A stretch of 63,326 bases of DNA, counting the filler. It is 9 parts of 9 records of this genome, joined end to end, with 100 filler letters (N's around TTAATTAATTAA, not from the genome) between each part and the next. Parts side by side here need not be neighbours in the genome. Positions count along the whole stretch, not along the records: positions 1 to 5,612 come from SRR31156797_60205; 8 more parts are not named here. One strand, written 5' to 3'. This document shows, piece after piece, positions 1 through 50,034 of this stretch (within the stretch, counting starts at the first letter, position 1; each line of letters starts with the position of its first letter). The notes beneath the pieces are model-generated. The model had not been told where the DNA came from and ran no database searches. It worked only from the letters and a program-made list of their open reading frames with translations. The translations under genes and the position numbers were made by a program.

Positions 1-324
1 GAAACCGGCAGCGCTCCCATCGCCCCGTCAGTAGCTTTGGATTATGATCAAATCGAGCGGGACGGGCTGGAAGTGTTCAATTCGCCCATGCTCGGCGTGT
101 TTTATCGTGCGCCCAGCCCGGGCGCCGATCCATTTGTTAAAAAGGGCTCACAGGTAAAAAAAGGGGAAACCCTTTGCATAATAGAAGTTATGAAGCTGTA
201 TACCAGCATCGCCGCCGGCGCCCGGGGCGAGATAGTCGAAATATATGTTGAAGACGGCCAAATGGTTGAATATGGGCAGCCCCTGTTCCTGATAAAACCT
301 ATTACAGAGTCGGACGGCGAATAA
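1..324 (+). CDS. accB: Biotin carboxyl carrier protein (5' truncated by window start)
   Basis: SPMLGVFYRAPSPGADPFV and EVMKL biotinyl-lysine motif; frame is open from position 1. Confidence 0.92.
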   Translation, partial: ETGSAPIAPSVALDYDQIERDGLEVFNSPMLGVFYRAPSPGADPFVKKGSQVKKGETLCIIEVMKLYTSIAAGARGEIVEIYVEDGQMVEYGQPLFLIKPITESDGE

Positions 325-326
325 AC

Positions 327-1679
327 ATGGCCGCAGATATTTCCAGGGTTTTTATTGCCAACAGAGGCGAGATCGCCCTTCGGATAATAAGGGCCTGCAA
401 GGATTTGGGCCTTGAAACGGTTATTGCGGTTTCCACCGCGGATAAGGAAAGCCTGCCGGCCCGAACAGCCGACAGGGCTGTTTGTATTGGGCCGCATCAA
501 CCCGCCGACAGCTATCTAAAGGCGGGGACAATTGTAACCGCAGCCAAAGGATCGGGATGCGACGCCGTTCATCCCGGTTATGGCTTCTTGGCGGAAAAGC
601 CTCAACTGGCCGGCGCCTGCCTGGAAAACGGACTGATATTCATCGGCCCCAAGCCTGAGCACATCGAAACAATGGGCGACAAACTATTGGCCAGAAAGGC
701 GGCTACGGAATTGGGGATTCCCCTGATACCCGGCTCCGGCAATGTTAACAACCTGGAAGAAGCAAAACTTGAAGCTGATAAGATCGGCTTCCCCGTGCTG
801 CTCAAGGCGGCCGCCGGAGGCGGCGGCAAAGGCATGAAGATAGTGACGGATCCCGGCCGATTCGAGGCTGTTTTCCATGAAGCCCGCGGCGAAGCCCGGG
901 CCGCCTTTAATGATGACCGGCTCTACCTGGAGCGCCTGATCGTCAATGCCCGCCACATTGAAGTTCAGATACTGGCCGATTCGTATGGACGGGCCGTTCA
1001 TTTATTCGAGAGGGACTGTTCGGTTCAGCGCCGGTACCAGAAAGTGATCGAAGAAGCCTTGTCGCCCCTGGTCACCCCTGAAATACGCAAAAAAATATGC
1101 AAGGCCGCGTTGGACATCGCCGGTCACATCAGGTATGAAAACGCCGGCACAGTGGAATTCGTTCTGGACCTGGACCGGCAGGAATTTTATTTCCTGGAAA
1201 TGAACACAAGAATCCAGGTCGAGCATCCTGTCACTGAAATGATCACCGGCATTGATTTGGTCAAGCAACAGATTCTCATTGCGGCCGGGGAGCGGCTCAG
1301 CCTGGAACAGGAACAAATTACAACGGCCGGACACGCCATTGAGTGCCGCATTAACGCCGAGGCGGCCGAGGACGGATTCAGGCCCTGTCCGGGGAGAATT
1401 AGAGAGTGGCGCCCCCCCGAAGGCGAGGGAGTGCGGGTGGACAGCCACTGCTTTCCAGGATACATGGTTCCGCCCTTTTACGATTCCCTGTTGGCCAAGG
1501 TCATTACTTTTGGCCGCGATCGGGCCCAGGCCGTCGACCGCATGCAACGTGCACTGGAGCAGTTCGAGGTTACGGGAATCGAGACTACCATCGCTTTTCT
1601 GAACTCCTTAATGCAACACGAGGATTTTGTCGCCTCAAACATTAACACCGGCTGGCTGGAGAACACGGTTTTACCATGA
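327..1679 (+). CDS. accC: Biotin carboxylase subunit
   Basis: IANRGEIA, HPGYGFLAE, KAAAGGGGKG, ERDCSVQRR, EMNTRIQVEHPVTE motifs. Confidence 0.95.
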   Translation: MAADISRVFIANRGEIALRIIRACKDLGLETVIAVSTADKESLPARTADRAVCIGPHQPADSYLKAGTIVTAAKGSGCDAVHPGYGFLAEKPQLAGACLENGLIFIGPKPEHIETMGDKLLARKAATELGIPLIPGSGNVNNLEEAKLEADKIGFPVLLKAAAGGGGKGMKIVTDPGRFEAVFHEARGEARAAFNDDRLYLERLIVNARHIEVQILADSYGRAVHLFERDCSVQRRYQKVIEEALSPLVTPEIRKKICKAALDIAGHIRYENAGTVEFVLDLDRQEFYFLEMNTRIQVEHPVTEMITGIDLVKQQILIAAGERLSLEQEQITTAGHAIECRINAEAAEDGFRPCPGRIREWRPPEGEGVRVDSHCFPGYMVPPFYDSLLAKVITFGRDRAQAVDRMQRALEQFEVTGIETTIAFLNSLMQHEDFVASNINTGWLENTVLP

Positions 1680-1695
1680 AGAAGGACGGTTTTTG

Positions 1696-3141
1696 ATGAA
1701 AAGAATTTCATTTGTCGATACATCTTTGCGGGATGGGCCCCAGAGTCTCTGGAACGGACGCATGACCACATCCATGATGCTGCCCATTGCGCCGGTAATC
1801 GATCGGGTCGGTTTCGAGGCCCTGGACTTTATGGCCTTGATAAGCATGGACTGGTGCATTCGCAACCTCGGTGAAAATCCATGGGACCGGATGCGTCTCA
1901 TGGCCCGGGCCATGCCCAACACGCCTCTGATAGTGGGCGGAGTGTTACGAAACTTCGGCAACGTTCCAGACTCGATCACCGAATTTTGGACTCTCAAGAT
2001 TGCCGAGGCCGGCGCGTCCAGAATAAGAATAAACGATCCCTGCCATGACACTGCTCAGGTAAAAAAGGCTATCGGCTGGTCTCAAGCCGCCGGCATGACT
2101 ACAATGGTCGCCTTGATTTTTTCCCAGAGCCCGGTCCACACCGATGAATACTACGCCCAAAAGGCCCTGGAATTCGCCCAGGCAGGCGCCGACCGATTGT
2201 TCGTCAAGGATGTAGACGGATTGTTAACGCCGGAAAGAACCCGAACCCTTATCCGGGCCATACGCGATAAAGTGAACGGCCTGCCCCTGGAAATACACGG
2301 CCACTGCACAACCGGCCTTGAGCCTATATGTTACCTGGAGGCCATTAAGCTGGGCGTGGAAACTGTCCATACTGCTGTCGCGCCCCTGGCCAACGGCCCG
2401 TCCCAGCCGTCCGTGGACAACATTATCCACAATGCACGCATGATGGGTTACTCGCATGGCCTGGACGAATCCGCCCTGGCCGAGATGACCGAGCATTTTC
2501 AATACATAGCGCAAAACGAGGGCTTTACATCGGGCGCTCCAGTGGAATATGATCTGTTTCAATACGAACACCAGTTGCCGGGCGGAATGCTTTCCAACTA
2601 CCAGGCCGAGTTGGACAGGCGCGGATTAGGCGACAAATTGGAGGTCCTGCTTAAAGAGGTTGCCCTTATCCGCCGGGAACTGGGTTATCCGATCATGGTC
2701 ACGCCCCTGTCTCAATACATCGGCGCCCAGGCCATACTCAATCATACCCTCGGAGACCGCTATAAAATAGTCAGCGATGAGATAATCAAATATGCATTGG
2801 GCCATTTTGGAGAGTTAATTGCGCCGGTGGAAAAAGAAGTGATGGAAAAAATCAAAAAGCTGCCCCGGACCAGTGAACTGGCCGACTGGCAGCCCGCCCA
2901 AAGGCCTTTGGACGAACTGCGCGAAGAATTCGGCCGGGATTTAAGCGACGACGAATTCCTGTTGCGCGTCCTTTCATCCAACCAGGAAGCCGTGGACAGG
3001 GTTCTGGAAAAAGGCGAGCAAAATTATCATTACCCCGATAAAGATCAACCGTTAATGACTGTTTTGACCAAACTGCTTTCGGATGAGGAAAGGACCTGCA
3101 TCCGGATTGAAACAGAGGGGTTTTCCCTGAGCCTGAATTAA
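1696..3141 (+). CDS. Carboxyltransferase subunit of the pyruvate carboxylase/oxaloacetate decarboxylase alpha family (divergent)
   Basis: DTSLRDGPQSLW, KDVDGLL, HGHCTTG, HQLPGGM, GYPIMVTPLSQ motifs; start placed at the ATG after GAAGGA. Confidence 0.88.
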   Translation: MKRISFVDTSLRDGPQSLWNGRMTTSMMLPIAPVIDRVGFEALDFMALISMDWCIRNLGENPWDRMRLMARAMPNTPLIVGGVLRNFGNVPDSITEFWTLKIAEAGASRIRINDPCHDTAQVKKAIGWSQAAGMTTMVALIFSQSPVHTDEYYAQKALEFAQAGADRLFVKDVDGLLTPERTRTLIRAIRDKVNGLPLEIHGHCTTGLEPICYLEAIKLGVETVHTAVAPLANGPSQPSVDNIIHNARMMGYSHGLDESALAEMTEHFQYIAQNEGFTSGAPVEYDLFQYEHQLPGGMLSNYQAELDRRGLGDKLEVLLKEVALIRRELGYPIMVTPLSQYIGAQAILNHTLGDRYKIVSDEIIKYALGHFGELIAPVEKEVMEKIKKLPRTSELADWQPAQRPLDELREEFGRDLSDDEFLLRVLSSNQEAVDRVLEKGEQNYHYPDKDQPLMTVLTKLLSDEERTCIRIETEGFSLSLN

Positions 3142-3164
3142 AAAATTATCCAGAGGATTATAAT

Positions 3165-4028
3165 ATGAAGCCCGAACAGCACAACAGAAACAACCCGGGC
3201 GATAAAGTGATCATCACCGCCGCCATTACCGGCGGCCGCATCATGCGCGATATCGCCCCGACCATCCCCTACTCTCCCGAGGAAATAGTCCAGTCTTCCA
3301 TCGACGCCTGGAACGCGGGCGCCGCCATAGTTCATATCCACGTCCGCGATCCCGAAACCGGATTGGGCGTGCAGGACCTTGAAATGTTTCGCCGTGTGGT
3401 CGATCCCCTGCGGGAAAAGACCGACCTGGTCCTCAGCCTGACTACCTCGGGCATAGCGGGCCGGAATCTGCCTTATGAAGACCGGCTGGTCCCACTGGAA
3501 CTGGTCCCCGAACTGGCTTCCTTTGACGCCGGCTCGATAAACCTGGGTGGTGGAGTGTTCAGCAATCCTCCTGATTTCCTGGATGTTGCCGCCATAAAGA
3601 TGAAAGAAAAAGGCGTCAAGCCGGAGATCGAAATATTTGACTCGGGCATGATCGTAACCGCTCTCGGCCTGAGGGACCAGGACAAGCTTGATGATCCGCT
3701 GCATTTCCAGTTTGTGCTGGGCACACCCTGGGGCGCTCCGGCAACGCCCAAATCCCTGTTGCATCTTTACGAACATATCCCTGAAAACGCCACATGGTCT
3801 GTCGTCGGCATCGGCAAGGGTCATCTGCCCATGTCCATGATGGGCCTGATTATGGGCGGCCATATCAGGGTTGGATTGGAAGACAATATTTATTACAAGC
3901 GCGGCGTGAAAGCCGAAACCAATGCCCAGTTTGTGGAGAGGATTGCACTCTTGGCCCGCGATTACGGACGGGACGTGGCTTCCCCCCGGGAGACCCGGGT
4001 CATTCTGGGTCTGGCTGAACCAAGGTAG
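3165..4028 (+). CDS. Beta-keto acid cleavage enzyme (BKACE/DUF849, Kce family) 1
   Basis: IITAAITG, HIHVRD, KPEIEIFD, HIRVGLEDN, NAQFVER motifs. Confidence 0.92.
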   Translation: MKPEQHNRNNPGDKVIITAAITGGRIMRDIAPTIPYSPEEIVQSSIDAWNAGAAIVHIHVRDPETGLGVQDLEMFRRVVDPLREKTDLVLSLTTSGIAGRNLPYEDRLVPLELVPELASFDAGSINLGGGVFSNPPDFLDVAAIKMKEKGVKPEIEIFDSGMIVTALGLRDQDKLDDPLHFQFVLGTPWGAPATPKSLLHLYEHIPENATWSVVGIGKGHLPMSMMGLIMGGHIRVGLEDNIYYKRGVKAETNAQFVERIALLARDYGRDVASPRETRVILGLAEPR

Positions 4029-4115
4029 TATCTGTCCATAAATGGTTCTTTTTCTAAATTTTTAGACAGACGCCAAGAAATAAATACCGTAAATCAACAA
4101 AGGAGATAATGGAGC

Positions 4116-4997
4116 ATGGAGATTACAGTTGAAATTGCAAAAATGAAAAAGTTGATTATCACGGTGGCCCAAACCGGAGGCCTCCACAACAAAAGCACCA
4201 ACCCCGCCTTGCCGGAACAGCCGGACGAAATCGCGCAGTCGGCCTACGATTGTTACAATGCAGGAGCTTCGGTTTGCCATATCCACGCCCGGGATTCCAA
4301 GGGGCTGACCACGGGCGACGTGGATATTCATAATGAAATAATCAGTAAAATAAATGCAAAATGCCCCATCATCACCCAGGTGGGAAACGGCATCGGGGCC
4401 GTTACCAAGCCCGATGGAACCAGGGCCGCCGCCAGCCTGGACGAACGTATGGCCCTGACCACGCTCAATCCCAAACCGGACATGCTCACCATTAACATGG
4501 GCACCTTTGAGTTCGACGGTATCGACACCTTTGAAAACCCGATGTGGTGGAATGAGGAATTCGCCCGGAAATGCTACGAGCGGGACATCGCCATTGAGTG
4601 CGAGTGTTATGACATGGGGCACGTATTCAATGCCCTGGAATTGGTAAAAAGAGGCGCGCTCAAGACGCCGGTCCATTTCAGCCTGGTGCTGGGTATTAAC
4701 GGCGGCATGCCGTTCACCCCTAAACTGTTGTCAGCCATGGTCGATCTGCTGCCCGAAGGCTCCAGTTGGCAGGTCATCACCATCAGCAAGATGCAACTGC
4801 CCTCAACCGTGATGGCCATGTGCCAGGGGGCCAATATAAGAACAGGCCTGGAAGATAACATTTATTTCTCCAAGGGCGTGTTGGCCAAAAGCAATGCTCA
4901 ACTTGTGGAGAGGATGGTCAACATAGCCAGGGAAATAGGCCGGGAAGTGGCCACGGTGGACGAAGCCGTGGAAATGATGGGCGTAAAACGCGACTGA
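4116..4997 (+). CDS. Beta-keto acid cleavage enzyme (BKACE/DUF849) 2
   Basis: IITVAQTG, HIHARD, NIRTGLEDN, SNAQLVER motifs; alternative start at 4143. Confidence 0.92.
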   Translation: MEITVEIAKMKKLIITVAQTGGLHNKSTNPALPEQPDEIAQSAYDCYNAGASVCHIHARDSKGLTTGDVDIHNEIISKINAKCPIITQVGNGIGAVTKPDGTRAAASLDERMALTTLNPKPDMLTINMGTFEFDGIDTFENPMWWNEEFARKCYERDIAIECECYDMGHVFNALELVKRGALKTPVHFSLVLGINGGMPFTPKLLSAMVDLLPEGSSWQVITISKMQLPSTVMAMCQGANIRTGLEDNIYFSKGVLAKSNAQLVERMVNIAREIGREVATVDEAVEMMGVKRD

Positions 4998-5062
4998 GGA
5001 GCTAATCGATTTCTTTAATTGATAATCTTTCTTGGAAAACGTTAAATTTAGGGAGGTGCAAG

Positions 5063-5612
5063 GTGAAATTCGACAAGCTGGCATTACTGGTAATGGTTTT
5101 TTGTTTGATTTGTTCTCTCTCGGCGCCGCTGAAGGCAAGCGCCGCAGACGTTATTGAACTGAAAGCTTCTGTTTGGCAGCCGCCCATGCACCCCGTGGTT
5201 CAGGAAGTGTACCTGCCGTGGGGGAAAATGATTGAAGAGCGCACCAATGGCCGGGTCAAAATAAAATGGTTCCTGGGCGGAACCCTGGTCAAGGCCGAAC
5301 AGGGGCTCAGCGCTGTGAAGAGCGGCCTGGCCGACATAGTAATGCCCCTGGGCGTGTGGGCTTACAACAAGCAATTCCCCGCCTCCAACGCCCTGTTCAT
5401 GCCCTTTCAGCTGGAAAGTGAACTTCACGCCACTCAGTCTTTTTATGAATGCTTCCAGCAGGTTCCCGAAATAAGAAACGAATACAAAGGTATGAAGGTC
5501 ATCGGCTTTCTGACCACGGGCATATCCAATTTCCACATGAAGTCGAACCAGATTAAGTCGCTGGATGATTTCAAGAATGAAAAGATCTGGGGCGCCAACG
5601 CTATTGGAGTCA
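5063..5612 (+). CDS. dctP: TRAP transporter substrate-binding protein (3' truncated)
   Basis: Signal peptide (…ASA-AD), W.K.IEERTNGRVKI, GGTL, G.ADI pattern. Confidence 0.85.
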
Positions 5613-5712
5613 NNNNNNNNNNNNNNNNNNNNNNNNNNNNNNNNNNNNNNNNNNNNTTAATTAATTAANNNNNNNNNNNNNNNNNNNNNNNNNNNNNNNN
5701 NNNNNNNNNNNN
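5613..5712. other. Artificial contig spacer
   Basis: N run + TTAATTAATTAA + N run. Confidence 0.98.
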
Positions 5713-5801: not shown

Positions 5802-6263
5802 ATGAAAGACGTAAAAAAAATACTGGTCGGATTATGCCTTTCGCCTCATGCAAAGGATGTTTTCAACCAGGCCGCTCAGCTAGCTGAAAGCTTCAACGCC
5901 GAAATAATCGCTCTTAACGTCCTTAACATCAGGGATGTCGAAGACGTAAGTTCAATAGAATCATTGGGTTATAATGTAAAATCCGATGACTACCGCAAAA
6001 CGGTCAAGGAAGAAAGGCGAGAGGAAATATCTAAATTAATAGAAGAATCCGGCTTCCCCTCAGAACGGGCCAAAATTGTTATAACCGTCGGCCACCCGGT
6101 CGAAAAAATCCTGGAATACATAAAGGAAGAAAATGCGGATCTGGTCGTAATGGGCGCCAAGGGGAAAAGCAACCTGACCCAGCTTCTGGTCGGGTCGGTC
6201 GCGGAAAAAATCTTTCGCCATTCTCCTGTAACAGTAATCTCCTATCGGGACAAGACCTATTGA
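5802..6263 (+). CDS. Universal stress protein
   Basis: KKILVG at N-terminus, ADLVVMGAKG, GSVAEKIFRHSPVTV. Confidence 0.92.
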   Translation: MKDVKKILVGLCLSPHAKDVFNQAAQLAESFNAEIIALNVLNIRDVEDVSSIESLGYNVKSDDYRKTVKEERREEISKLIEESGFPSERAKIVITVGHPVEKILEYIKEENADLVVMGAKGKSNLTQLLVGSVAEKIFRHSPVTVISYRDKTY

Positions 6264-6703
6264 TTGTTTATTTTTTTCTTAAATAGACCTCATCGGCTCC
6301 CCAATTAGGACGAGGCGCCCGCACCCCCACATTGAACCATCATTCACAAAGGTTGGCGATCTATATCGCTCAAGCCGGAATACCCCAAAAAAATCCGTCA
6401 TGAATAACGTTTATTGGATAATTTTTTTTAAAAGCCGTTTTCCATGCCCGACCATTGAAAAGCACCGTGAACATGTTAAAATGGGCATATGTATATTTTG
6501 TGTTATTTTGCTAATTTATATCAACCCTTAGCCGAATTTGACTTATTGTTGTTCCTTCCTGAATCAGTGTTGAAACCTCTATATGATAGTTTGACTAACT
6601 TCCCTAATTTTCTTTTCTTAACGATTCTTCTTGACAATCAGGCATCGACGTGTAAGAAAAATTTCGCAAAAGTAACCTTAAAAAGATAAGGATAAGAGGC
6701 CCC

Positions 6704-7576
6704 ATGAGTTTTCAGAAGCGGTTAAAATCAGGTGAATTCGTCGTACTGGCTGAAATGGACACCCCCAAGGGAGTGGATATTTCCGAACTGGTCACCAATG
6801 CCCGCCGTATAAAAGGACGGGTTGACGCCGTCATTATTCCCGATATGGGAAACGGAGTCATGCGCATGAGCGCATTGGGCGGCGGAGTTCTAATGCATCA
6901 GCAGGGAATGGAAGCAGTTATGCATATCTGTCCCCGCGACAGGAACAGGCTCGCGCTCCAGGGAGACATCCTGGCCGCCCACGTTCTTGGTATCCAGAAT
7001 ATAATCGTCGTCCAGGGCGAAGATATGTCTTATGGAGACCATCTTGACGCCAAATCCGTGAACGATCTTGATGAATTGGATCTCCTGGGCGCTATTCGGT
7101 CCTTACAAGAAGGCCGCGATCTCGCCGGTATTGAAATATCAGGCAGCCCCTCCTTTGTGGTCGGCTGTTCGCTTTCTCCTTTTGCCGATGACGCGGCAAT
7201 GGAAAAGGAACTCGAATCCGCCTCCAAAAAGATAGAAGCAGGCGCACAGTTTGTTATTTGCCCTCCCGTTTTCGATGTGGACGTATTTTCGTCCTTCATG
7301 GAAAAGGCCAAAGGACTGGGCGTTCCCATAATTCCGACCGTATTTCTATTAAAATCGGTTGGAGTGGCAAGGTATATGGCCGCCAATATTCCCGGATGCC
7401 ACATCTCCGAAGAGATGATCAAGCGTATACGCAAAGCCCCCGACAGAGTCACCGAATGTATCCGCATAGCCGGCGAAACCGTCGCCGCCCTCAAGGGGAT
7501 AGCTCAAGGAGTGCAAATTGTGACCCTTGGATGGGAACACCGCTTGCCGGCCATCCTGGATCATGCCGGCCTTTAA
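6704..7576 (+). CDS. Methylenetetrahydrofolate reductase-like protein (divergent MetF paralog)
   Basis: E..TPKG, HICPRDRNRLALQ, KKIEAGAQF MTHFR motifs. Confidence 0.85.
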   Translation: MSFQKRLKSGEFVVLAEMDTPKGVDISELVTNARRIKGRVDAVIIPDMGNGVMRMSALGGGVLMHQQGMEAVMHICPRDRNRLALQGDILAAHVLGIQNIIVVQGEDMSYGDHLDAKSVNDLDELDLLGAIRSLQEGRDLAGIEISGSPSFVVGCSLSPFADDAAMEKELESASKKIEAGAQFVICPPVFDVDVFSSFMEKAKGLGVPIIPTVFLLKSVGVARYMAANIPGCHISEEMIKRIRKAPDRVTECIRIAGETVAALKGIAQGVQIVTLGWEHRLPAILDHAGL

Positions 7577-7713
7577 TAACATTTCCAGACCATAAACGGA
7601 TGGCCTGCGCCCGGTGATAAGCCATTACGGCATAAATCCGCCGAGCGCGGTCGGTTGCGGTCAAAATCAGTCGCCGTTTCCTGATTTATACGGCGGACAA
7701 AAGTAAGAGAGAA

Positions 7714-10700
7714 ATGCAAGATCAAATCAATTCAGAGCCGAACAACAAAGTACTTGTCGTAGGCGGCGGTGTCGGCGGCATCAAGACAGCCCTGGATCTG
7801 GCTGAAGCCGGCCGGGAGGTCATGCTTGTCGATAAAGCACCTTCAATCGGCGGACTCATGACCCTGCTGGACCGCACATTCCCCACCAATAATTGTGATA
7901 TGTGCACAATTTCGCCCTACCTGGCCGAAAGCGGACGAGACCTCAATATTGATCTTTTGCCCTTAACCGAAATTGTATCGACTGAAGGACAGGCCGGCGA
8001 CTTTACAATCAAACTCCGGACCGCCCCCCGATACATCGATCTGGACAAATGCTCCGCCTGCGGCGAATGCCACAAAAAACATCCCGAATGCGTAAATTTC
8101 ACTCCCGGGCTCGACCACCGCGCCCCTACATGCATGCGCTACCCGCAGGCCACCCCCCTGGCCTTTTCTATTGACGCCGAAAAATGCAGCGCCATGGACG
8201 ACATAGTCGCAGTATGTCCCGATGACGCCATTATTCCCGACGAAGCTGAAAAAATCAGCGAAGTTAAAGTCGGGGCCATTGTCCTGGCCACCGGGGCCTG
8301 TCTCTATAATCCCGACGCCCTGGCCAACTACGGACACGGTATATATCCCAACGTGGTCACCGGCCTGGAATACGAACGCATAATGTCCGCTTCCGGCCCG
8401 ACAGCCGGAGACCTGATCCGTCCTTCGGACAGCAAGCGCCCCCAAAAAGTAGCCTGGATCCAATGCGTGGGATCGCGTAACATCAACCAGGCCGACGCCC
8501 CTTACTGCTCAAGCGTTTGCTGCATGTACGCTCTCAAAGAAGCTATGGTCACCAAGGAACGCTTCCAGGACGATATCGAAGCCGTGGTTTTTTATATGGA
8601 TATGAGAACCTCGGGTAAGGATTACGAACTTTATCTCCAACGCTCCAAGGACGAATACGGAGTCAGGCTGGTTCGCTGCCGGCCGCACACCATTGAGCCT
8701 CAACCCGGAACCAAAGATCTTTCAATCACCTACACCACTGATGACAGCTCAACCCCTCAAAAAGAAGTTTTCGACATGGTCGTCCTTTCCACAGGATTCC
8801 ATGTCCCGCCTGACGTCGTCGATCTGGCCGGCGCCCTGGGTATTGAGCTTAACGAATGGAACTTTGTCAAAACAGACAGTTTCAACCCGGTTACCACAAG
8901 TAAAAAGGGAATCTATGTTTGCGGGCTCCTGGAAAGCCCCAAGGACATCCCCGAAACTCTCGTCCAGGCCAGCGCCGCCGCCGGCATGGTTTCTCACGAC
9001 CTGCCCGCCAAAGACCAACTGGCCGCACATGAGGAATTCCCTCCGGAAAGGGATGTTGCCGGCGAAGAACCTAAATTGGGAGTGTTCGTATACAACTATT
9101 CTTCATACGAAGGCGTCATAAATCCAAATGAAGTGGCAGAATACGCCTCGGGCCTGTCCGGCGTAGCCGTTTCCGAAGTTATTCAACACGGTTCTTCCGA
9201 AGAAACCCTGGGCCATATTCAGGAAACCATTCGAAAAGAACAATTGAACAGAGTAGTAATAGCCGGAACTTCCCCCAGGACCCACGAGACTCTTTTCCAG
9301 GACACCATCCGCAGGGCCGGCCTCAATAAATATCTCCTCGAAATGGCCAATATCCGCGACCAGAACGTCTGGGTGCACAGTGATTCGCCCGAACAGGCGT
9401 CCCAAAAAGCAAATGACCTGGTCCGTATGGCCGTTTCCAGCGCCGCCCAGAGAACTCCGCTTATCGACCACACCATCGACATGAACAAGGAAGTCCTTGT
9501 CATCGGCGGCGGAGTCACCGGTATGAACGCGGCTCTGAACATGGCCGAAGACGGCTTCAAGGTCTTCCTGGTCGAACAGGCCCCCGAACTCGGCGGCCTG
9601 GCCAGGGATCTGCACAAAACTCTCGAAGGAGAAGACGTGCAGGCCTATATGAACGACCTTGTCGAAAGAACAAAAAACCACGATAATATCCAGGTTCTGA
9701 CCGGCGCCATAGTTGTCGATCACACCGGCATGCCCGGCCAGTTCAAAACCGGACTCCAGGTCGGACCGCAAATGTATTACCGCCAGATAAGCCATGGCGT
9801 GACCATACTCGCCACCGGCGCCCTGGCCAACCGTCCCAAGGAATACATGCTCGGCGAGCACGAAGCCGTCATGACCCAACGGGATCTCGATTCCCTGCTT
9901 GAAGAAAACCCCGATAAATTCAAAACCATGGATCGCGTGGTTATGATCCAGTGCGTGGGTTCGCGCGTTCCGGAAAATCCCAATTGCAGCCGCGTCTGCT
10001 GCCAGAGCGCCGTCAAGAACGCGCTCCGCATCCTGGACATTAATCCGGAAATAAAAATATTCGTCCTGTACCGCGATATGAGAACATACGGGTTCCAGGA
10101 AGTGTATTACCGTCAAGCCCGCGAACGGGGCGTTCTCTTCGCCCGTTACAGCCTGGATGACAAACCGGTCGTCGCCGCCTCGGGAGACAAGGTCGAAGTC
10201 ACATTCCACGACGCCATTCTGGATATGAAAATCAGCGTCCCGGTTGACTGCCTCGCTCTGAGCACCGGTTTTATCGCGGACGATGAAGCCACTGAAGACC
10301 TGTCCATGATCTTTCACCTCCCCAGGACCGAAGACGGGTATTTTCTTGAAGAACACGTCAAACTCAAACCCGTAGACCTGCCGGTTCCGGGATTCCTGGT
10401 CGCCGGAACGGCCCACTCGCCCAAGAGCGTCAGGGAAAGCATTACCCAGGCTCATGCCGCCGCCGGTCGGGCCAAGACCCTGCTGGCCCGTGATGTTATC
10501 AACCTCGGCGCTGCCGTGGCTAAAGTCGACGGCGACAAATGCGCGGCCTGCCTGATATGCGTCCGGGCCTGTCCTTTTGACGTCCCGTTCATCAACGCGG
10601 ACGGCTATTCGGAGATTGACCCGGCCAAATGTCACGGTTGCGGAATTTGCGCGGCTGAGTGCCCGGCCAAAGCTATTCAGCTCATGCAATTTGAAGACGA

Positions 10701-10761
10701 CCTTATCCTGGCCAAGGTCGAAGGACTTCTGGACGGGATTTTTATGGAAGGAATTCGTTGA
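7714..10761 (+). CDS. hdrA: Heterodisulfide reductase subunit A-like flavo-Fe-S protein (duplicated architecture)
   Basis: Two GGGxxG FAD motifs, DRTFPTNNC, two QCVGSR…CSxVCC motifs, C-terminal 2x[4Fe-4S]. Confidence 0.93.
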   Translation: MQDQINSEPNNKVLVVGGGVGGIKTALDLAEAGREVMLVDKAPSIGGLMTLLDRTFPTNNCDMCTISPYLAESGRDLNIDLLPLTEIVSTEGQAGDFTIKLRTAPRYIDLDKCSACGECHKKHPECVNFTPGLDHRAPTCMRYPQATPLAFSIDAEKCSAMDDIVAVCPDDAIIPDEAEKISEVKVGAIVLATGACLYNPDALANYGHGIYPNVVTGLEYERIMSASGPTAGDLIRPSDSKRPQKVAWIQCVGSRNINQADAPYCSSVCCMYALKEAMVTKERFQDDIEAVVFYMDMRTSGKDYELYLQRSKDEYGVRLVRCRPHTIEPQPGTKDLSITYTTDDSSTPQKEVFDMVVLSTGFHVPPDVVDLAGALGIELNEWNFVKTDSFNPVTTSKKGIYVCGLLESPKDIPETLVQASAAAGMVSHDLPAKDQLAAHEEFPPERDVAGEEPKLGVFVYNYSSYEGVINPNEVAEYASGLSGVAVSEVIQHGSSEETLGHIQETIRKEQLNRVVIAGTSPRTHETLFQDTIRRAGLNKYLLEMANIRDQNVWVHSDSPEQASQKANDLVRMAVSSAAQRTPLIDHTIDMNKEVLVIGGGVTGMNAALNMAEDGFKVFLVEQAPELGGLARDLHKTLEGEDVQAYMNDLVERTKNHDNIQVLTGAIVVDHTGMPGQFKTGLQVGPQMYYRQISHGVTILATGALANRPKEYMLGEHEAVMTQRDLDSLLEENPDKFKTMDRVVMIQCVGSRVPENPNCSRVCCQSAVKNALRILDINPEIKIFVLYRDMRTYGFQEVYYRQARERGVLFARYSLDDKPVVAASGDKVEVTFHDAILDMKISVPVDCLALSTGFIADDEATEDLSMIFHLPRTEDGYFLEEHVKLKPVDLPVPGFLVAGTAHSPKSVRESITQAHAAAGRAKTLLARDVINLGAAVAKVDGDKCAACLICVRACPFDVPFINADGYSEIDPAKCHGCGICAAECPAKAIQLMQFEDDLILAKVEGLLDGIFMEGIR

Positions 10762-12453: not shown

Positions 12454-12553
12454 NNNNNNNNNNNNNNNNNNNNNNNNNNNNNNNNNNNNNNNNNNNNTTA
12501 ATTAATTAANNNNNNNNNNNNNNNNNNNNNNNNNNNNNNNNNNNNNNNNNNNN
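12454..12553. other. Artificial contig spacer
   Basis: N run + TTAATTAATTAA + N run. Confidence 0.98.
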
Positions 12554-13852
12554 GCCGCCGGTCTCGGTCTGCCACCAGGTGTCCACAATGGGGCAGCGGT
12601 TCTCGCCGACCACCTCGTGGTACCAGCGCCAGGCTTCGGGATTGATGGGTTCTCCCACAGTGCCTAACAGGCGAAGCGTCTTGCGGCTGTGCCGTGTGAC
12701 GTAGTCGTCCCCCAAACGCATAATGGCCCGGATGGCTGTGGGCGCGGTGTAAAAGATATTAATCTTCCACTTGTCCACAACCTCCCAGAACCTACCTGCG
12801 TCCGGATATGTCGGCACGCCTTCAAACATCAGGGTTTGGGCGCCGTTAAGCAACGGGCCGTACAAAATGTAGCTGTGACCGGTGACCCAGCCTATGTCCG
12901 CCGTGCACCAGTAGATATCTCCGTCATGGTAGTCAAACACGTATTTATGGGTTAATGAAGTATAAACCATGTACCCGCCGGTTGTGTGCAGAACACCCTT
13001 GGGCTTGCCCGTGGAACCTGACGTATAAAGAATGAACAGCGGCGTTTCCGCCTCAACCATTACCGGAGCGCACTCGGAATCGGCATCGGCGACCAGATCG
13101 TGCCAATACTTGTCGCGGCCTTCGGTCATAAGACACTCAAAGTCCCCGCCTACTCGCCGAACCACGACAACATCCTTGACCTCATGCCCTTCGTCCTTGG
13201 AACCCTCCAGGGCATCGTCAGCGATCTGCTTAAGTGGAACAGGCTTGCCGCCGCGATAAGTTCCATCGCTGGTTATGACCAGGGTGCACTCGGAATCCAC
13301 AATGCGGTCCTTGAGAGATTCAGCCGAAAACCCGCCGAATACTACGGAATGAATCACTCCCAGCCTGGCGCAGGCCAGCATGGCTATGCTCAATTCGGGA
13401 ATCATGGGTAAATAGATTGTTACCCGGTCGCCCTGCTTCAGCCCATACCCCTTGAGCACGTTGGCGAACTTGCAGACTTCGGTGTAAAGCTCCTTGAAAG
13501 TCAACACCCGGTCCTCGCCGGGCTCGTTGCCTTCCCACAATATGGCCGGTTGATCGCCCCGTGTTTCCAAATGCCGATCAACGCAGTTGTAGCACATATT
13601 GGTTTCGCCGCCCTGGAACCACTTGATCGAAATCGGCCCCGTGCTTTTGTGGTAGTTGTACTCCAGAACCTTGTCCCATTTCTTTTCCCAGTAGAAATCC
13701 TCTGCGACTTCAGCCCAGAAGCCCTCCGGGTCGTTTATGGAACGATTGTACATTTTCTGGTAGTCGTCCTGGGCGCCTATCCAGGCTTTTTCCGAAAAAG
13801 AAGATGGAGGATAGTAAAACCCGTTTTCCTTGCTGACTTCATCCGCGGACAT
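12554..13852 (-). CDS. acs: Acetyl-CoA synthetase, AMP-forming (3' truncated)
   Basis: [53 protein letters not shown]. Confidence 0.96.
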
Positions 13853-14018
13853 ATCTGCTCCTTTCTTTTAGTTGCTCCCGAGGCCTTTGAAAAACATTGA
13901 TTTTGCCCGGACCTGCAAGTCCAACCCCTGGATCGCCAAAGGGCGCAGTCTTGCAAAGGTCTCGCACCGGGTGTTTTATATTACAGCCAAAAGCAGGCCG
14001 GCCGCGCCGGTCCGCTTA

Positions 14019-14750
14019 CTACCAAATTCCCGATGTTCTTATCAGGTCGCGCAGGCTTCCCCAACCCGCCCTTTCCATTTCCACCAGCAGACGCTGAAAT
14101 ATAATGGCCGTGGCCATGGCGTCCCCGATAGCCGTATGCCTTTCGGGCAGGTCAATGCCGAACCTTTCAGTCAGGGCATCCAGGCTGCAGCGCTTGGCCC
14201 CGCGCCTCTGACCATAAGGGTCTGCTTCTATAACAACCTGGCGGCACATCAAAACCGTGTCCACCACCAGGTTCTGAAGCCTGAAGCCGTATTGTTCCTT
14301 CATAACCCGGTTTATGAAAAACAGGTCGAACCTGGCGTGATGGGCCACTAAAATATTGTCGCCCAGAAACCCCAGAAAATCCTCCATAACTTCCCAGGCC
14401 ATCCGCGCGCTACGGATCATATCCGGCATGATGGCATGAACATGGATCGATTCCACAGGGATTGATCTTCCCGGATTAACCAACTCGTCAAACACTTCTC
14501 CCAGTTGAATTTTGCCGTCCACTATACGAAAAGCCCCCACGCTCACCACCCTGTCCTTTTTCGGATCCATACCCGTGGTTTCCAGGTCAACAACCACGAA
14601 ACTGTGGGAACGGGCCGGATCGTTGGGCCTTATGTTGTCCAGGGCGTTAAGGTTGGCCCGGGCGCGCGAATTTAGATGGCGGCGCGACATCATCAAACGC
14701 ACCCATTGGTTGAGGATTTTCGAACCCATTATATTCAATTCAGTTTCCAT
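14019..14750 (-). CDS. DEDDh 3'-5' exonuclease (DnaQ-like)
   Basis: VVVDLETTG, HHARFD, RHTAIGDA motifs. Confidence 0.9.
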   Translation of the reverse strand: METELNIMGSKILNQWVRLMMSRRHLNSRARANLNALDNIRPNDPARSHSFVVVDLETTGMDPKKDRVVSVGAFRIVDGKIQLGEVFDELVNPGRSIPVESIHVHAIMPDMIRSARMAWEVMEDFLGFLGDNILVAHHARFDLFFINRVMKEQYGFRLQNLVVDTVLMCRQVVIEADPYGQRRGAKRCSLDALTERFGIDLPERHTAIGDAMATAIIFQRLLVEMERAGWGSLRDLIRTSGIW

Positions 14751-19983: not shown

Positions 19984-20083
19984 NNNNNNNNNNNNNNNNN
20001 NNNNNNNNNNNNNNNNNNNNNNNNNNNTTAATTAATTAANNNNNNNNNNNNNNNNNNNNNNNNNNNNNNNNNNNNNNNNNNNN
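19984..20083. other. Artificial contig spacer
   Basis: N run + TTAATTAATTAA + N run. Confidence 0.98.
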
Positions 20084-25202: not shown

Positions 25203-25302
25203 NNNNNNNNNNNNNNNNNNNNNNNNNNNNNNNNNNNNNNNNNNNNTTAATTAATTAANNNNNNNNNNNNNNNNNNNNNNNNNNNNNNNNNNNNNNNNNN
25301 NN
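25203..25302. other. Artificial contig spacer
   Basis: N run + TTAATTAATTAA + N run. Confidence 0.98.
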
Positions 25303-32378: not shown

Positions 32379-32478
32379 NNNNNNNNNNNNNNNNNNNNNN
32401 NNNNNNNNNNNNNNNNNNNNNNTTAATTAATTAANNNNNNNNNNNNNNNNNNNNNNNNNNNNNNNNNNNNNNNNNNNN
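32379..32478. other. Artificial contig spacer
   Basis: N run + TTAATTAATTAA + N run. Confidence 0.98.
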
Positions 32479-39549: not shown

Positions 39550-39649
39550 NNNNNNNNNNNNNNNNNNNNNNNNNNNNNNNNNNNNNNNNNNNNTTAATTA
39601 ATTAANNNNNNNNNNNNNNNNNNNNNNNNNNNNNNNNNNNNNNNNNNNN
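39550..39649. other. Artificial contig spacer
   Basis: N run + TTAATTAATTAA + N run. Confidence 0.98.
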
Positions 39650-44830: not shown

Positions 44831-44930
44831 NNNNNNNNNNNNNNNNNNNNNNNNNNNNNNNNNNNNNNNNNNNNTTAATTAATTAANNNNNNNNNNNNNN
44901 NNNNNNNNNNNNNNNNNNNNNNNNNNNNNN
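44831..44930. other. Artificial contig spacer
   Basis: N run + TTAATTAATTAA + N run. Confidence 0.98.
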
Positions 44931-49934: not shown

Positions 49935-50034
49935 NNNNNNNNNNNNNNNNNNNNNNNNNNNNNNNNNNNNNNNNNNNNTTAATTAATTAANNNNNNNNNN
50001 NNNNNNNNNNNNNNNNNNNNNNNNNNNNNNNNNN
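49935..50034. other. Artificial contig spacer
   Basis: N run + TTAATTAATTAA + N run. Confidence 0.98.

Follow-up and report, generated by a model that had tools for sequence, protein, structure and literature searches.

The first contig of a 63,326-nt stretch of joined DNA (the whole stretch is called the window here) encodes a three-subunit biotin-dependent carboxylase, two beta-keto acid cleavage enzymes (BKACE, DUF849) and a DctP-type TRAP solute-binding protein in a single operon-like run of genes. The carboxylase comprises BCCP (the biotin carboxyl carrier protein), a biotin carboxylase (BC) and a carboxyltransferase (CT), and its host is an uncultured sulfate-reducer-type bacterium. We tentatively favor the view that the operon is an anaerobic, kinase-less variant of ketone activation, in which the carboxylase would act on an anionic keto substrate other than pyruvate and feed its product to BKACE. 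The gene content, the placement of CT in a BCCP-less superfamily apart from OadA and PycB, and the recurrent linkage of CT to BKACE are the observations that carry this reading.

A six-gene operon of carboxylase, BKACE, and TRAP genes

Window positions 1 to 5,612 correspond to record SRR31156797_60205, and all positions given here count along the whole stretch. As proposed from the sequence-only reading, six genes lie co-directionally on the + strand of this contig with short gaps, which in order from BCCP to DctP measure 2, 16, 23, 87, and 65 nt. A scan of these gaps detected no terminator-like sites on the + strand. The six genes are confirmed as real, co-directional, and operon-like, and are as follows.

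1..324, + strand: BCCP, 3' part, 107 codons (PF00364, E 1e-21; TIGR00531 positions 66-155 of 156), 5' end cut at the window start
327..1679, + strand: biotin carboxylase, AccC-like, 450 aa (PF00289, PF02786, and PF02785)
1696..3141, + strand: CT, 481 aa, PycB/OadA-like TIM barrel with a C-terminal extension (PF00682, HMGL-like, and PF02436, PYC_OADA; no BCCP domain)
3165..4028, + strand: BKACE1 (PF05853, E 9e-93)
4116..4997, + strand: BKACE2, 293 aa (PF05853, E 4e-88)
5063..5612, + strand: DctP-type TRAP solute-binding protein, 5' part, ~183 codons (PF03480 positions 5-139 of 286)

The translated BCCP carries the biotinylation (biotinyl-lysine) motif EVMKL, and the biotin carboxylase scored above the cut-off of NF006367 (646 bits, cut-off 597) and below that of TIGR00514 (618.5, cut-off 626.5). 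The start of CT was placed at ATG 1696 rather than TTG 1627 because homologs are 481 aa long. Domains and catalytic motifs were intact in the complete proteins, as judged from profile matches, structure alignments, and the CT alignment. The predicted DctP gene is present, but only its N-terminal half (the first ~183 residues), as the gene is broken off at 5613 by a contig joint; full-length orthologs in two related loci (L002 and L003; compared loci are numbered with the prefix L) encode 358 to 369 aa with a fused DctQM adjoining. The order BCCP-BC-CT-BKACE1-BKACE2-DctP was repeated in L001, L002, L003, L093, and L140, and hence the arrangement is not due to chance.

The window consists of nine artificially joined contigs, separated by eight copies of one 100-nt linker (44 N, TTAATTAATTAA, 44 N). 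Gene neighborhood across the linkers is therefore artificial, and the locus itself is visible only from mid-BCCP to mid-DctP, with the genes 5' of BCCP lying outside the window.

5613-5712, 12454-12553, 19984-20083, 25203-25302, 32379-32478, 39550-39649, 44831-44930, 49935-50034, no strand: linkers, artificial, not biology

The contig following the first joint encodes, at 5802-10761, a universal stress protein, an MTHFR-like protein (290 aa), and an HdrA-like flavoprotein (1015 aa) that contains a 4Fe-4S part in addition to two FAD/NAD domains. The latter two presumably represent the MetF/HdrA-type set of Wood-Ljungdahl-pathway anaerobes. Lying after 5712, beyond the artificial joint, all three genes were ruled out as members of the cluster.

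A carboxyltransferase clade apart from OadA and PycB

CT has thousands of relatives, and the best 120 were nearly all 481 aa long and encoded by Desulfobacterota-like, Dehalococcoidia, and other uncultured bacteria. A CT 97% identical to that of the window (P0007) lies on a longer contig of 14 kb. Its assignment as a PycB/OadA-type protein is borne out by its two domains, though CT scored below all curated PycB, OadA, and transcarboxylase 5S cut-offs (NF006761, 331.7 versus 402; NF008985, 310 versus 718; TIGR01108, 302 versus 756; NF008984, 243 versus 827). Alignment with the best solved relatives, OadA (2nx9), PycB (5ks8), and 5S (1u5j), spans residues 1-386 to 1-414 only, leaving ~100 extra C-terminal residues unaligned with these structures, and no PF00364 domain was found in CT. 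While identity to true OadA/PycB was 31 to 35%, identity to Hpe/Acv-like CTs encoded on plasmids was 35 to 40% over the full length. These plasmid relatives (Sphingomonas bisphenolicum, Pseudomonas putida, Rhizobium, and Rhodococcus) sit in BCCP-BC-CT strings that adjoin PEP-utilising or Tm-1-like kinases and HAD phosphatases, which is the gene pattern of the acetovanillone and 4-hydroxyacetophenone pathways.

The CT phylogeny comprised 88 rows, namely the window CT, 80 genome loci, 5 plasmid CTs, and 2 OadA/PycB outgroups, and was obtained by a quick IQ-TREE search (LG+G4, SH-aLRT support only, no mixture model) that returned long-branch warnings. The 86 BCCP-less CTs were separated from OadA/PycB by a long branch (SH-aLRT 100). 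Within them, the window CT fell in its own 21-row clade (SH-aLRT 100), located beside, not inside, an Hpe-like pair, an Acv-like trio, a small Desulfobacterales clade, and a large Binatia-rich clade, with the branching order among these clades not resolved by this tree. The analogy initially drawn with the Xcc carboxylase of Aromatoleum is thus upheld at the level of the superfamily that CT shares with the plasmid Hpe/Acv relatives, apart from OadA/PycB, but not to the extent of a position within the Hpe-like or Acv-like clades.

Across the aligned CTs, R12, D13, H201, H203, and T336 were conserved in 88 of 88 and K171 in 86 of 88. Given that these metal and catalytic residues are kept, CT should be active. 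From the VTPxSQ motif, we read T336 as the likely equivalent of Thr882 of Rhizobium etli pyruvate carboxylase, reported to be catalytically essential (PMC5895798).

Retention of the metal ligands and the catalytic Thr is also what would be expected if the trio were a variant three-subunit carboxylase for pyruvate, or another central 2-oxoacid, that serves an anaplerotic role beside BKACE/TRAP catabolic genes without feeding BKACE. Co-location would then arise since growth on a substrate yielding acetyl units needs oxaloacetate. We consider this unlikely, though far from negligible. CT is less similar to OadA/PycB than to the Hpe/Acv-like CTs, with which it aligns from end to end, branches within the BCCP-less superfamily, and scores below the cut-offs of the pyruvate-type NCBIfam models. 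Furthermore, the strand LLRGQNLLGYR common to OadA, PycB, and 5S (2nx9, 5ks8, 1u5j, L086, and L087) is replaced in 21 of 21 CTs of the window clade by a three-residue deletion and IVGGVLRNFG, and KDMAG is changed to KDVDG. The Arg of the LLRGQN strand is the residue that we take to bind the carboxylate of pyruvate. Its loss was nonetheless dropped as proof against pyruvate and is an unreliable marker of substrate, because the Hpe-like CT L082, which does not use pyruvate, keeps it, as do 14 of the 88 CTs overall. A shifted Arg, R85, occurs in 20 of the 21 CTs of the window clade.

Other variation was observed within the superfamily. At CT residues 13-17 (window 1708-1722), RDGPQS is found in the window protein and its three nearest relatives, RDAHQS being usual in the rest of the clade and in pyruvate carboxylases, and His15 is changed to Pro in 6 of 21 clade members. 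Binatia metagenome-assembled genomes (MAGs) encode BCCP-less CT paralogs (L035, L042-L049, L051, L053-L058, L062, L064-L065, L068-L069, L071-L072, and L076-L080), in several copies per genome; one 5.36-Mb chromosome, for instance, carries three such loci. Neither BC nor BCCP genes were found within 10 kb of these paralogs, and an amidase-family gene cluster was often near. A basal BCCP-less CT on a plasmid of Burkholderia sp. THE68 (L083, 2070-17446) occurs in the order CT-accB-accC; nearby genes bear the annotations acetoacetate decarboxylase, acetate symporter, carbonic anhydrase, and biotin synthesis.

Linkage of the carboxyltransferase to BKACE and other neighbors

To describe the linkage, 20 genome loci encoding a CT 62 to 84% identical to that of the window were scrutinized for BKACE within 10 kb. 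BKACE was found in 8 of the 20 (L001, L002, L003, L004, L006, L007, L012, and L020), all of them Desulfobacterota-like MAGs, and the conserved linkage claimed from the sequence alone is to this extent supported. Loci with no BKACE within 10 kb were eleven from Dehalococcoidia, L010, and L019; among the Desulfobacterota-labelled loci together with two from deltaproteobacterial or unclassified-Proteobacteria MAGs, BKACE was missing only in L019. In the wider CT family, BKACE lay beside CT in 10 of 80 loci, adding L022 and L032. Of the eight loci, seven have BKACE located 3' of CT, and L020 has it before CT. In L022, BKACE lies upstream of BCCP-BC-CT, and there BKACE1 is 77% identical to that of the window while the CT is paralogous and only 47% identical. 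Because gene order differs between loci, we argue that the CT-BKACE linkage is under selection. BKACE2 was missing from L004, L007, and L020.

The confinement of this linkage to Desulfobacterota-like MAGs, and its partial nature in both directions of search, would also be expected if carboxylase and BKACE/TRAP were two unrelated modules that came to lie in one operon by chance during the descent of a single lineage. We regard this as highly improbable, given that the linkage involves two CT clades (84 to 62% and 47% identity), that BKACE is found on either side of CT, that the remaining neighbors differ between the linked loci, and that the same pairing is known from aerobes.

Both BKACE proteins match PF05853 over profile positions 1-274 and share 36% identity. 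Among solved structures, BKACE1 matches 2y7d best (E 4e-65). The HxH and EDN motifs line up in this alignment and in that of BKACE2 (E 1e-46); the HxH and E-D motifs are presumably Zn ligands. This structure belongs to Kce, the 3-keto-5-aminohexanoate cleavage enzyme, which is also the best curated relative of BKACE1 (NF052387). The subgroup assignment reaches the BKACE family but not Kce itself, which was rejected as both proteins scored below the cut-off of 382 bits (311 for BKACE1, 276 for BKACE2). A role for BKACE1 in lysine fermentation was discarded likewise, no lysine-fermentation genes being present in the annotated window-type loci.

Other BKACE1 loci encode class-III aminotransferases, Glu/Leu/Phe/Val-type dehydrogenases, glycine-reductase-like components, and Tct transporters, as well as enoyl-CoA hydratase and acyl-CoA dehydrogenase. 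BKACE1 looks like a general module lifting beta-keto acids to the CoA level; these can stem from beta-amino acids, from beta-hydroxy acids or, in the CT cluster, from carboxylation. In L095, L103, L118, and L120, BKACE1 orthologs (78 to 83% identity) adjoin GRDB, Gly_reductase, and GrdC-like DUF5940 genes, which are glycine/sarcosine/betaine-reductase-like, together with Tct genes. Directly after CT in L012 (11500-12720), a BKACE1-like match is split into three pieces that overlap and lie in different frames (48%, 42%, and 64% identity), which suggests that this gene is frameshifted or decayed; an intact, different BKACE lies at 13722-14627. In L104/L105, a frame of sigma-54 activator, BKACE1, GltD-like protein, and three-subunit 2-oxoacid:ferredoxin oxidoreductase occurs with BCCP-BC-CT, and the same frame occurs in L100/L102 without it, with MFS transporters and a second BKACE instead.

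A gene of the 3-hydroxyacyl-CoA-dehydrogenase family (3HCDH-like, cluster c11) was frequently colocated, being present in L002, L003, L004, L006, L007, L012, L020, and L022. TRAP or TAXI-TRAP genes occurred in L001-L004, L006, L012, and L020, either as DctP with a fused DctQM or as a TAXI protein with a fused membrane protein. Some syntenic loci add a sigma-54 activator or split AcnX dehydratase, LarA-like, Ldh_2, or amidase genes. Genes for AcnX-type dehydratases were found in L002, L003, L006, L093, and L140, and L006 also encodes a 2-hydroxyglutaryl-CoA-dehydratase-like protein.

Three routes to a substrate were tried and rejected. For DctP, the best solved relatives of a full-length ortholog (5im2, 7nr2, and 4n6d; E 1e-22 to 1e-26) are too distant for ligand transfer. 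For the neighbors, no single compound fits the GntR/isochorismatase/ABC, AMP-ligase/Tct, amidase, CN-hydrolase, M20 peptidase, LarA-like, Ldh_2, AcnX, and 2-oxoacid:ferredoxin oxidoreductase genes taken together. Finally, the 3HCDH-like protein is not assigned as an L-carnitine dehydrogenase, the carnitine models scoring 110 to 117 bits, which is well short of their cut-offs and lower than the scores of the acyl-CoA dehydrogenase models.

Proposed pathway, its alternatives, and known systems

In the pathway we propose, the TRAP transporter of the syntenic loci would import an anionic keto compound other than pyruvate. A carboxylase of the Xcc/Hpe/Acv type, dependent on ATP and biotin and consisting of BCCP, BC, and a carrier-less, PycB-derived CT, would then carboxylate the carbon adjacent to the carbonyl to yield a beta-keto acid, and BKACE1 and/or BKACE2 would convert this, with acetyl-CoA, into an acyl-CoA and acetoacetate without a CoA ligase or thiolase. 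Two roles are conceivable for the 3HCDH-like enzyme. It may oxidize the matching alcohol to the ketone, or it may oxidize a beta-hydroxy acid to the same labile beta-keto acid, in which case ketone formed as this acid decarboxylates spontaneously would be retrieved by the carboxylase, a role proposed in Sphingobium for acetovanillone arising from vanilloyl acetic acid. We infer the class of substrate, the direction of flow, and the identity of the carboxylase product with the BKACE substrate; the keto compound may or may not be a methyl ketone, as the sequence-only reading had suggested. The transporters argue for a charged substrate and, by analogy, its carboxylate or sulfonate could take the role that phosphate has in Hpe. 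Levulinate (giving 3-oxoadipate), amino- or sulfo-ketones, and acetoacetate are guesses at its identity.

A number of results weigh against the proposed pathway. Among 61 metagenome loci encoding a BKACE1 relative of at least 60% identity, CT was present in 8; 27 of these loci are flanked on each side by 1.5 kb or more, and only 6 of the 27 encode CT, with the pairs L099/L101 and L104/L105 among those six each appearing to be one contig sampled twice. In five Dehalococcoidia genomes (3.8 to 4.7 Mb) with a 66 to 69% identical trio, no BKACE was found (0/5), the trio CT was the sole PYC_OADA protein (5/5), and no PEP carboxylase was detected (0/5). The check for co-occurrence of CT and DUF849, which the sequence-only reading had set as a refuting condition, thus gave a mixed outcome, with co-occurrence in 8 of 20 CT orthologs, 10 of 80 loci of the wider family, none of these Dehalococcoidia, and 6 of 27 BKACE1 loci. 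In addition, no kinase or HAD phosphatase of the Hpe/Acv type was found among the annotated neighbors of L001-L004, L006, L007, L012, and L020, hence the mechanism of phosphorylated aryl ketones is not simply transferable. The tree that sets CT apart has the limitations stated above, the Arg of LLRGQN is kept in L082 and other CTs, and no single substrate is nameable from the analyses run.

Several of these results would suit a pyruvate carboxylase. In the five Dehalococcoidia genomes the trio is an isolated unit with variable neighbors and the only PYC_OADA-type enzyme, and alongside the missing PEP carboxylase, PEPCK_GTP was absent (0/5) and PEPCK_ATP was clear in only 3 of 5. Most BKACE1 orthologs also lack CT nearby. 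In L012, L099/L101, and L104/L105, a three-subunit 2-oxoacid:ferredoxin oxidoreductase and its GltD-like partner directly adjoin the carboxylase; anaerobes usually make oxaloacetate from acetyl-CoA by means of pyruvate synthase and then pyruvate carboxylase. Conversely, the 23-nt gap between CT and BKACE1 and the linkage in two gene orders look like one pathway. Five cluster-bearing genomes each encode a second PYC_OADA protein, canonical in the three examined (48 to 49% identical to PycB), and the window-type CT is therefore an extra enzyme in those five. Nor is the absence of BKACE from Dehalococcoidia an argument for pyruvate, because Hpe and Xcc, which make up two of the three carboxylases known to be of this type, are described as operating with a ligase plus a thiolase or hydrolase in place of BKACE (PMC9618137).

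The substrate might also be acetoacetate, the product of every BKACE reaction and the next homolog of pyruvate. Carboxylation would give 3-oxoglutarate, which one BKACE and acetyl-CoA would convert into malonyl-CoA and acetoacetate; alternatively, the carboxylase would recapture acetoacetate derived from imported C5-dicarboxylates by way of unstable 3-oxoglutarate. Two different BKACE paralogs in one operon, the di-/tricarboxylate transporters nearby (TRAP, TAXI, and Tct), and the AcnX-type and 2-hydroxyglutaryl-CoA-dehydratase-like genes are consistent with this, and the shifted R85 could suit a keto acid one carbon longer. However, the cycle yields no net gain, summing to acetyl-CoA + CO2 + ATP -> malonyl-CoA, no gene using malonyl-CoA was seen in the loci, BKACE2 is not present in all of them, and none of the analysis results bears on acetoacetate. 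We deem this very unlikely.

Ketone activation in strict anaerobes is only partly known. Nitrate reducers possess ATP-dependent, biotin-free acetone and acetophenone carboxylases, and Desulfococcus uses a thiamine- and B12-dependent route. To our knowledge, the only proven biotin-dependent ketone carboxylases are Hpe and Acv, recently found in lignin degraders; both have aerobic hosts and depend on the prior action of a phenol kinase. A more specific form of our proposal, which we hold to be possible but rather doubtful, is that in sulfate-reducer-type anaerobes a kinase-independent biotin carboxylase activates a nonaromatic anionic keto compound and BKACE takes the product to the CoA level. 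Such a compound could be levulinate or another omega-1 keto acid (levulinate would give 3-oxoadipate), an osmolyte-derived amino- or sulfo-ketone, or acetoacetate. If true, this would be a general, ligase-free, and oxygen-free route of ketone activation, not described for such anaerobes. The window CT clade occurs in many sediment MAGs and is linked to BKACE, TRAP, and dehydrogenase genes; the enzyme kind would be widened to new substrates and to anaerobes, and the short route from ketone to CoA ester at the cost of ATP and acetyl-CoA would be of interest to pathway design. Were the trio a pyruvate carboxylase without the canonical Arg, the point would be a smaller, enzymological one.

A close characterized counterpart is HpeCBA of Rhodococcus rhodochrous GD02, which likewise has separate BCCP, BC, and PycB-like CT subunits. 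HpeCBA is reported to carboxylate 4-phospho-acetophenone and 4-phospho-acetovanillone in vitro at the cost of 1 ATP per turnover (PMC9618137), and its ATP- and bicarbonate-dependent conversion of a methyl ketone into a beta-keto acid is the activity that, by analogy, the window trio may have. Its plasmid relative L082 belongs to the same BCCP-less CT superfamily and is 38% identical to the window CT over the full length. In Hpe, a kinase (HpeHI) is described as acting first and a phosphatase (HpeD) afterward, neither type being found in the annotated syntenic loci of the window CT, and the product passes to a CoA synthetase and a hydrolase where the window operon has BKACEs. Moreover, the Hpe host is an aerobic actinobacterium, and the window CT falls in a different clade and is devoid of the Arg kept by the Hpe-like CT. 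XccABC of Aromatoleum aromaticum EbN1, an anaerobe, is a proposed three-subunit biotin carboxylase for 4-hydroxyacetophenone and is related to the window trio only via Hpe/Acv; its downstream steps reportedly use a ligase and a thiolase. The xcc genes are described as clustering with hpeHI-like kinase genes (PMC9618137).

The window CT shares with PycAB, OadA, and 5S (5ks8, 2nx9, and 1u5j) the same fold and equivalents of R12, D13, K171, H201, H203, and T336. It differs from them in the lack of a fused BCCP, the replaced LLRGQN, the additional C-terminal residues, and scores below the curated cut-offs.

The sequence-only reading had stated that coupling of such a carboxylase to BKACE was undescribed, which does not hold. 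In Sphingobium sp. SYK-6, AcvCDE is reported to make vanilloyl acetic acid, which VceA converts with acetyl-CoA into vanilloyl-CoA and which otherwise decays spontaneously to the ketone to be retaken by the carboxylase; the identity of AcvE is given as 26% with PycB and as 55% with the Aromatoleum XccA (10.1101/2022.04.28.489975). Eight genes including AcvCDE/VceA have been reported to convert acetovanillone in engineered Pseudomonas (10.1101/2022.04.28.489975; 10.64898/2026.08.18.745639). A natural example is plasmid pBAR1 of Sphingomonas bisphenolicum AO1 (L081), where thioesterase, BKACE, Tm-1-like kinase, BCCP, BC, CT, and HAD hydrolase genes form one string; the gene annotated as '3-keto-5-aminohexanoate cleavage protein' is BKACE (PF05853, E 7.5e-72). 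We take VceA to be a BKACE-family protein as well, consistent with its reaction and with the pBAR1 gene. As in the window, AcvCDE with VceA/VceB and the pBAR1 operon combine a biotin carboxylase with an acetyl-CoA-dependent enzyme that turns a beta-keto acid into an acyl-CoA. Their proteins are distant from those of the window (CT 36% identity, BKACEs 32 to 34%), and they include a kinase (AcvAB or Tm-1-like), a HAD phosphatase, and a thioesterase. Unlike these systems, window-type loci encode a TRAP transporter, a 3HCDH-like dehydrogenase, and a second BKACE.

A natural BKACE and biotin carboxylase cluster of the window type was not found described in the literature searched, and the main text of the NetSyn preprint on BKACE contexts holds neither 'carboxylase' nor 'biotin', though supplements may bear on both points. 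A biotin-dependent ketone carboxylase, optionally feeding BKACE, is already known from AcvCDE with VceA and from the pBAR1 operon, and what is new here, relative to the literature searched, is the CT clade, the anaerobic hosts, the lack of a detected kinase or phosphatase, the second BKACE, and the TRAP and dehydrogenase partners.

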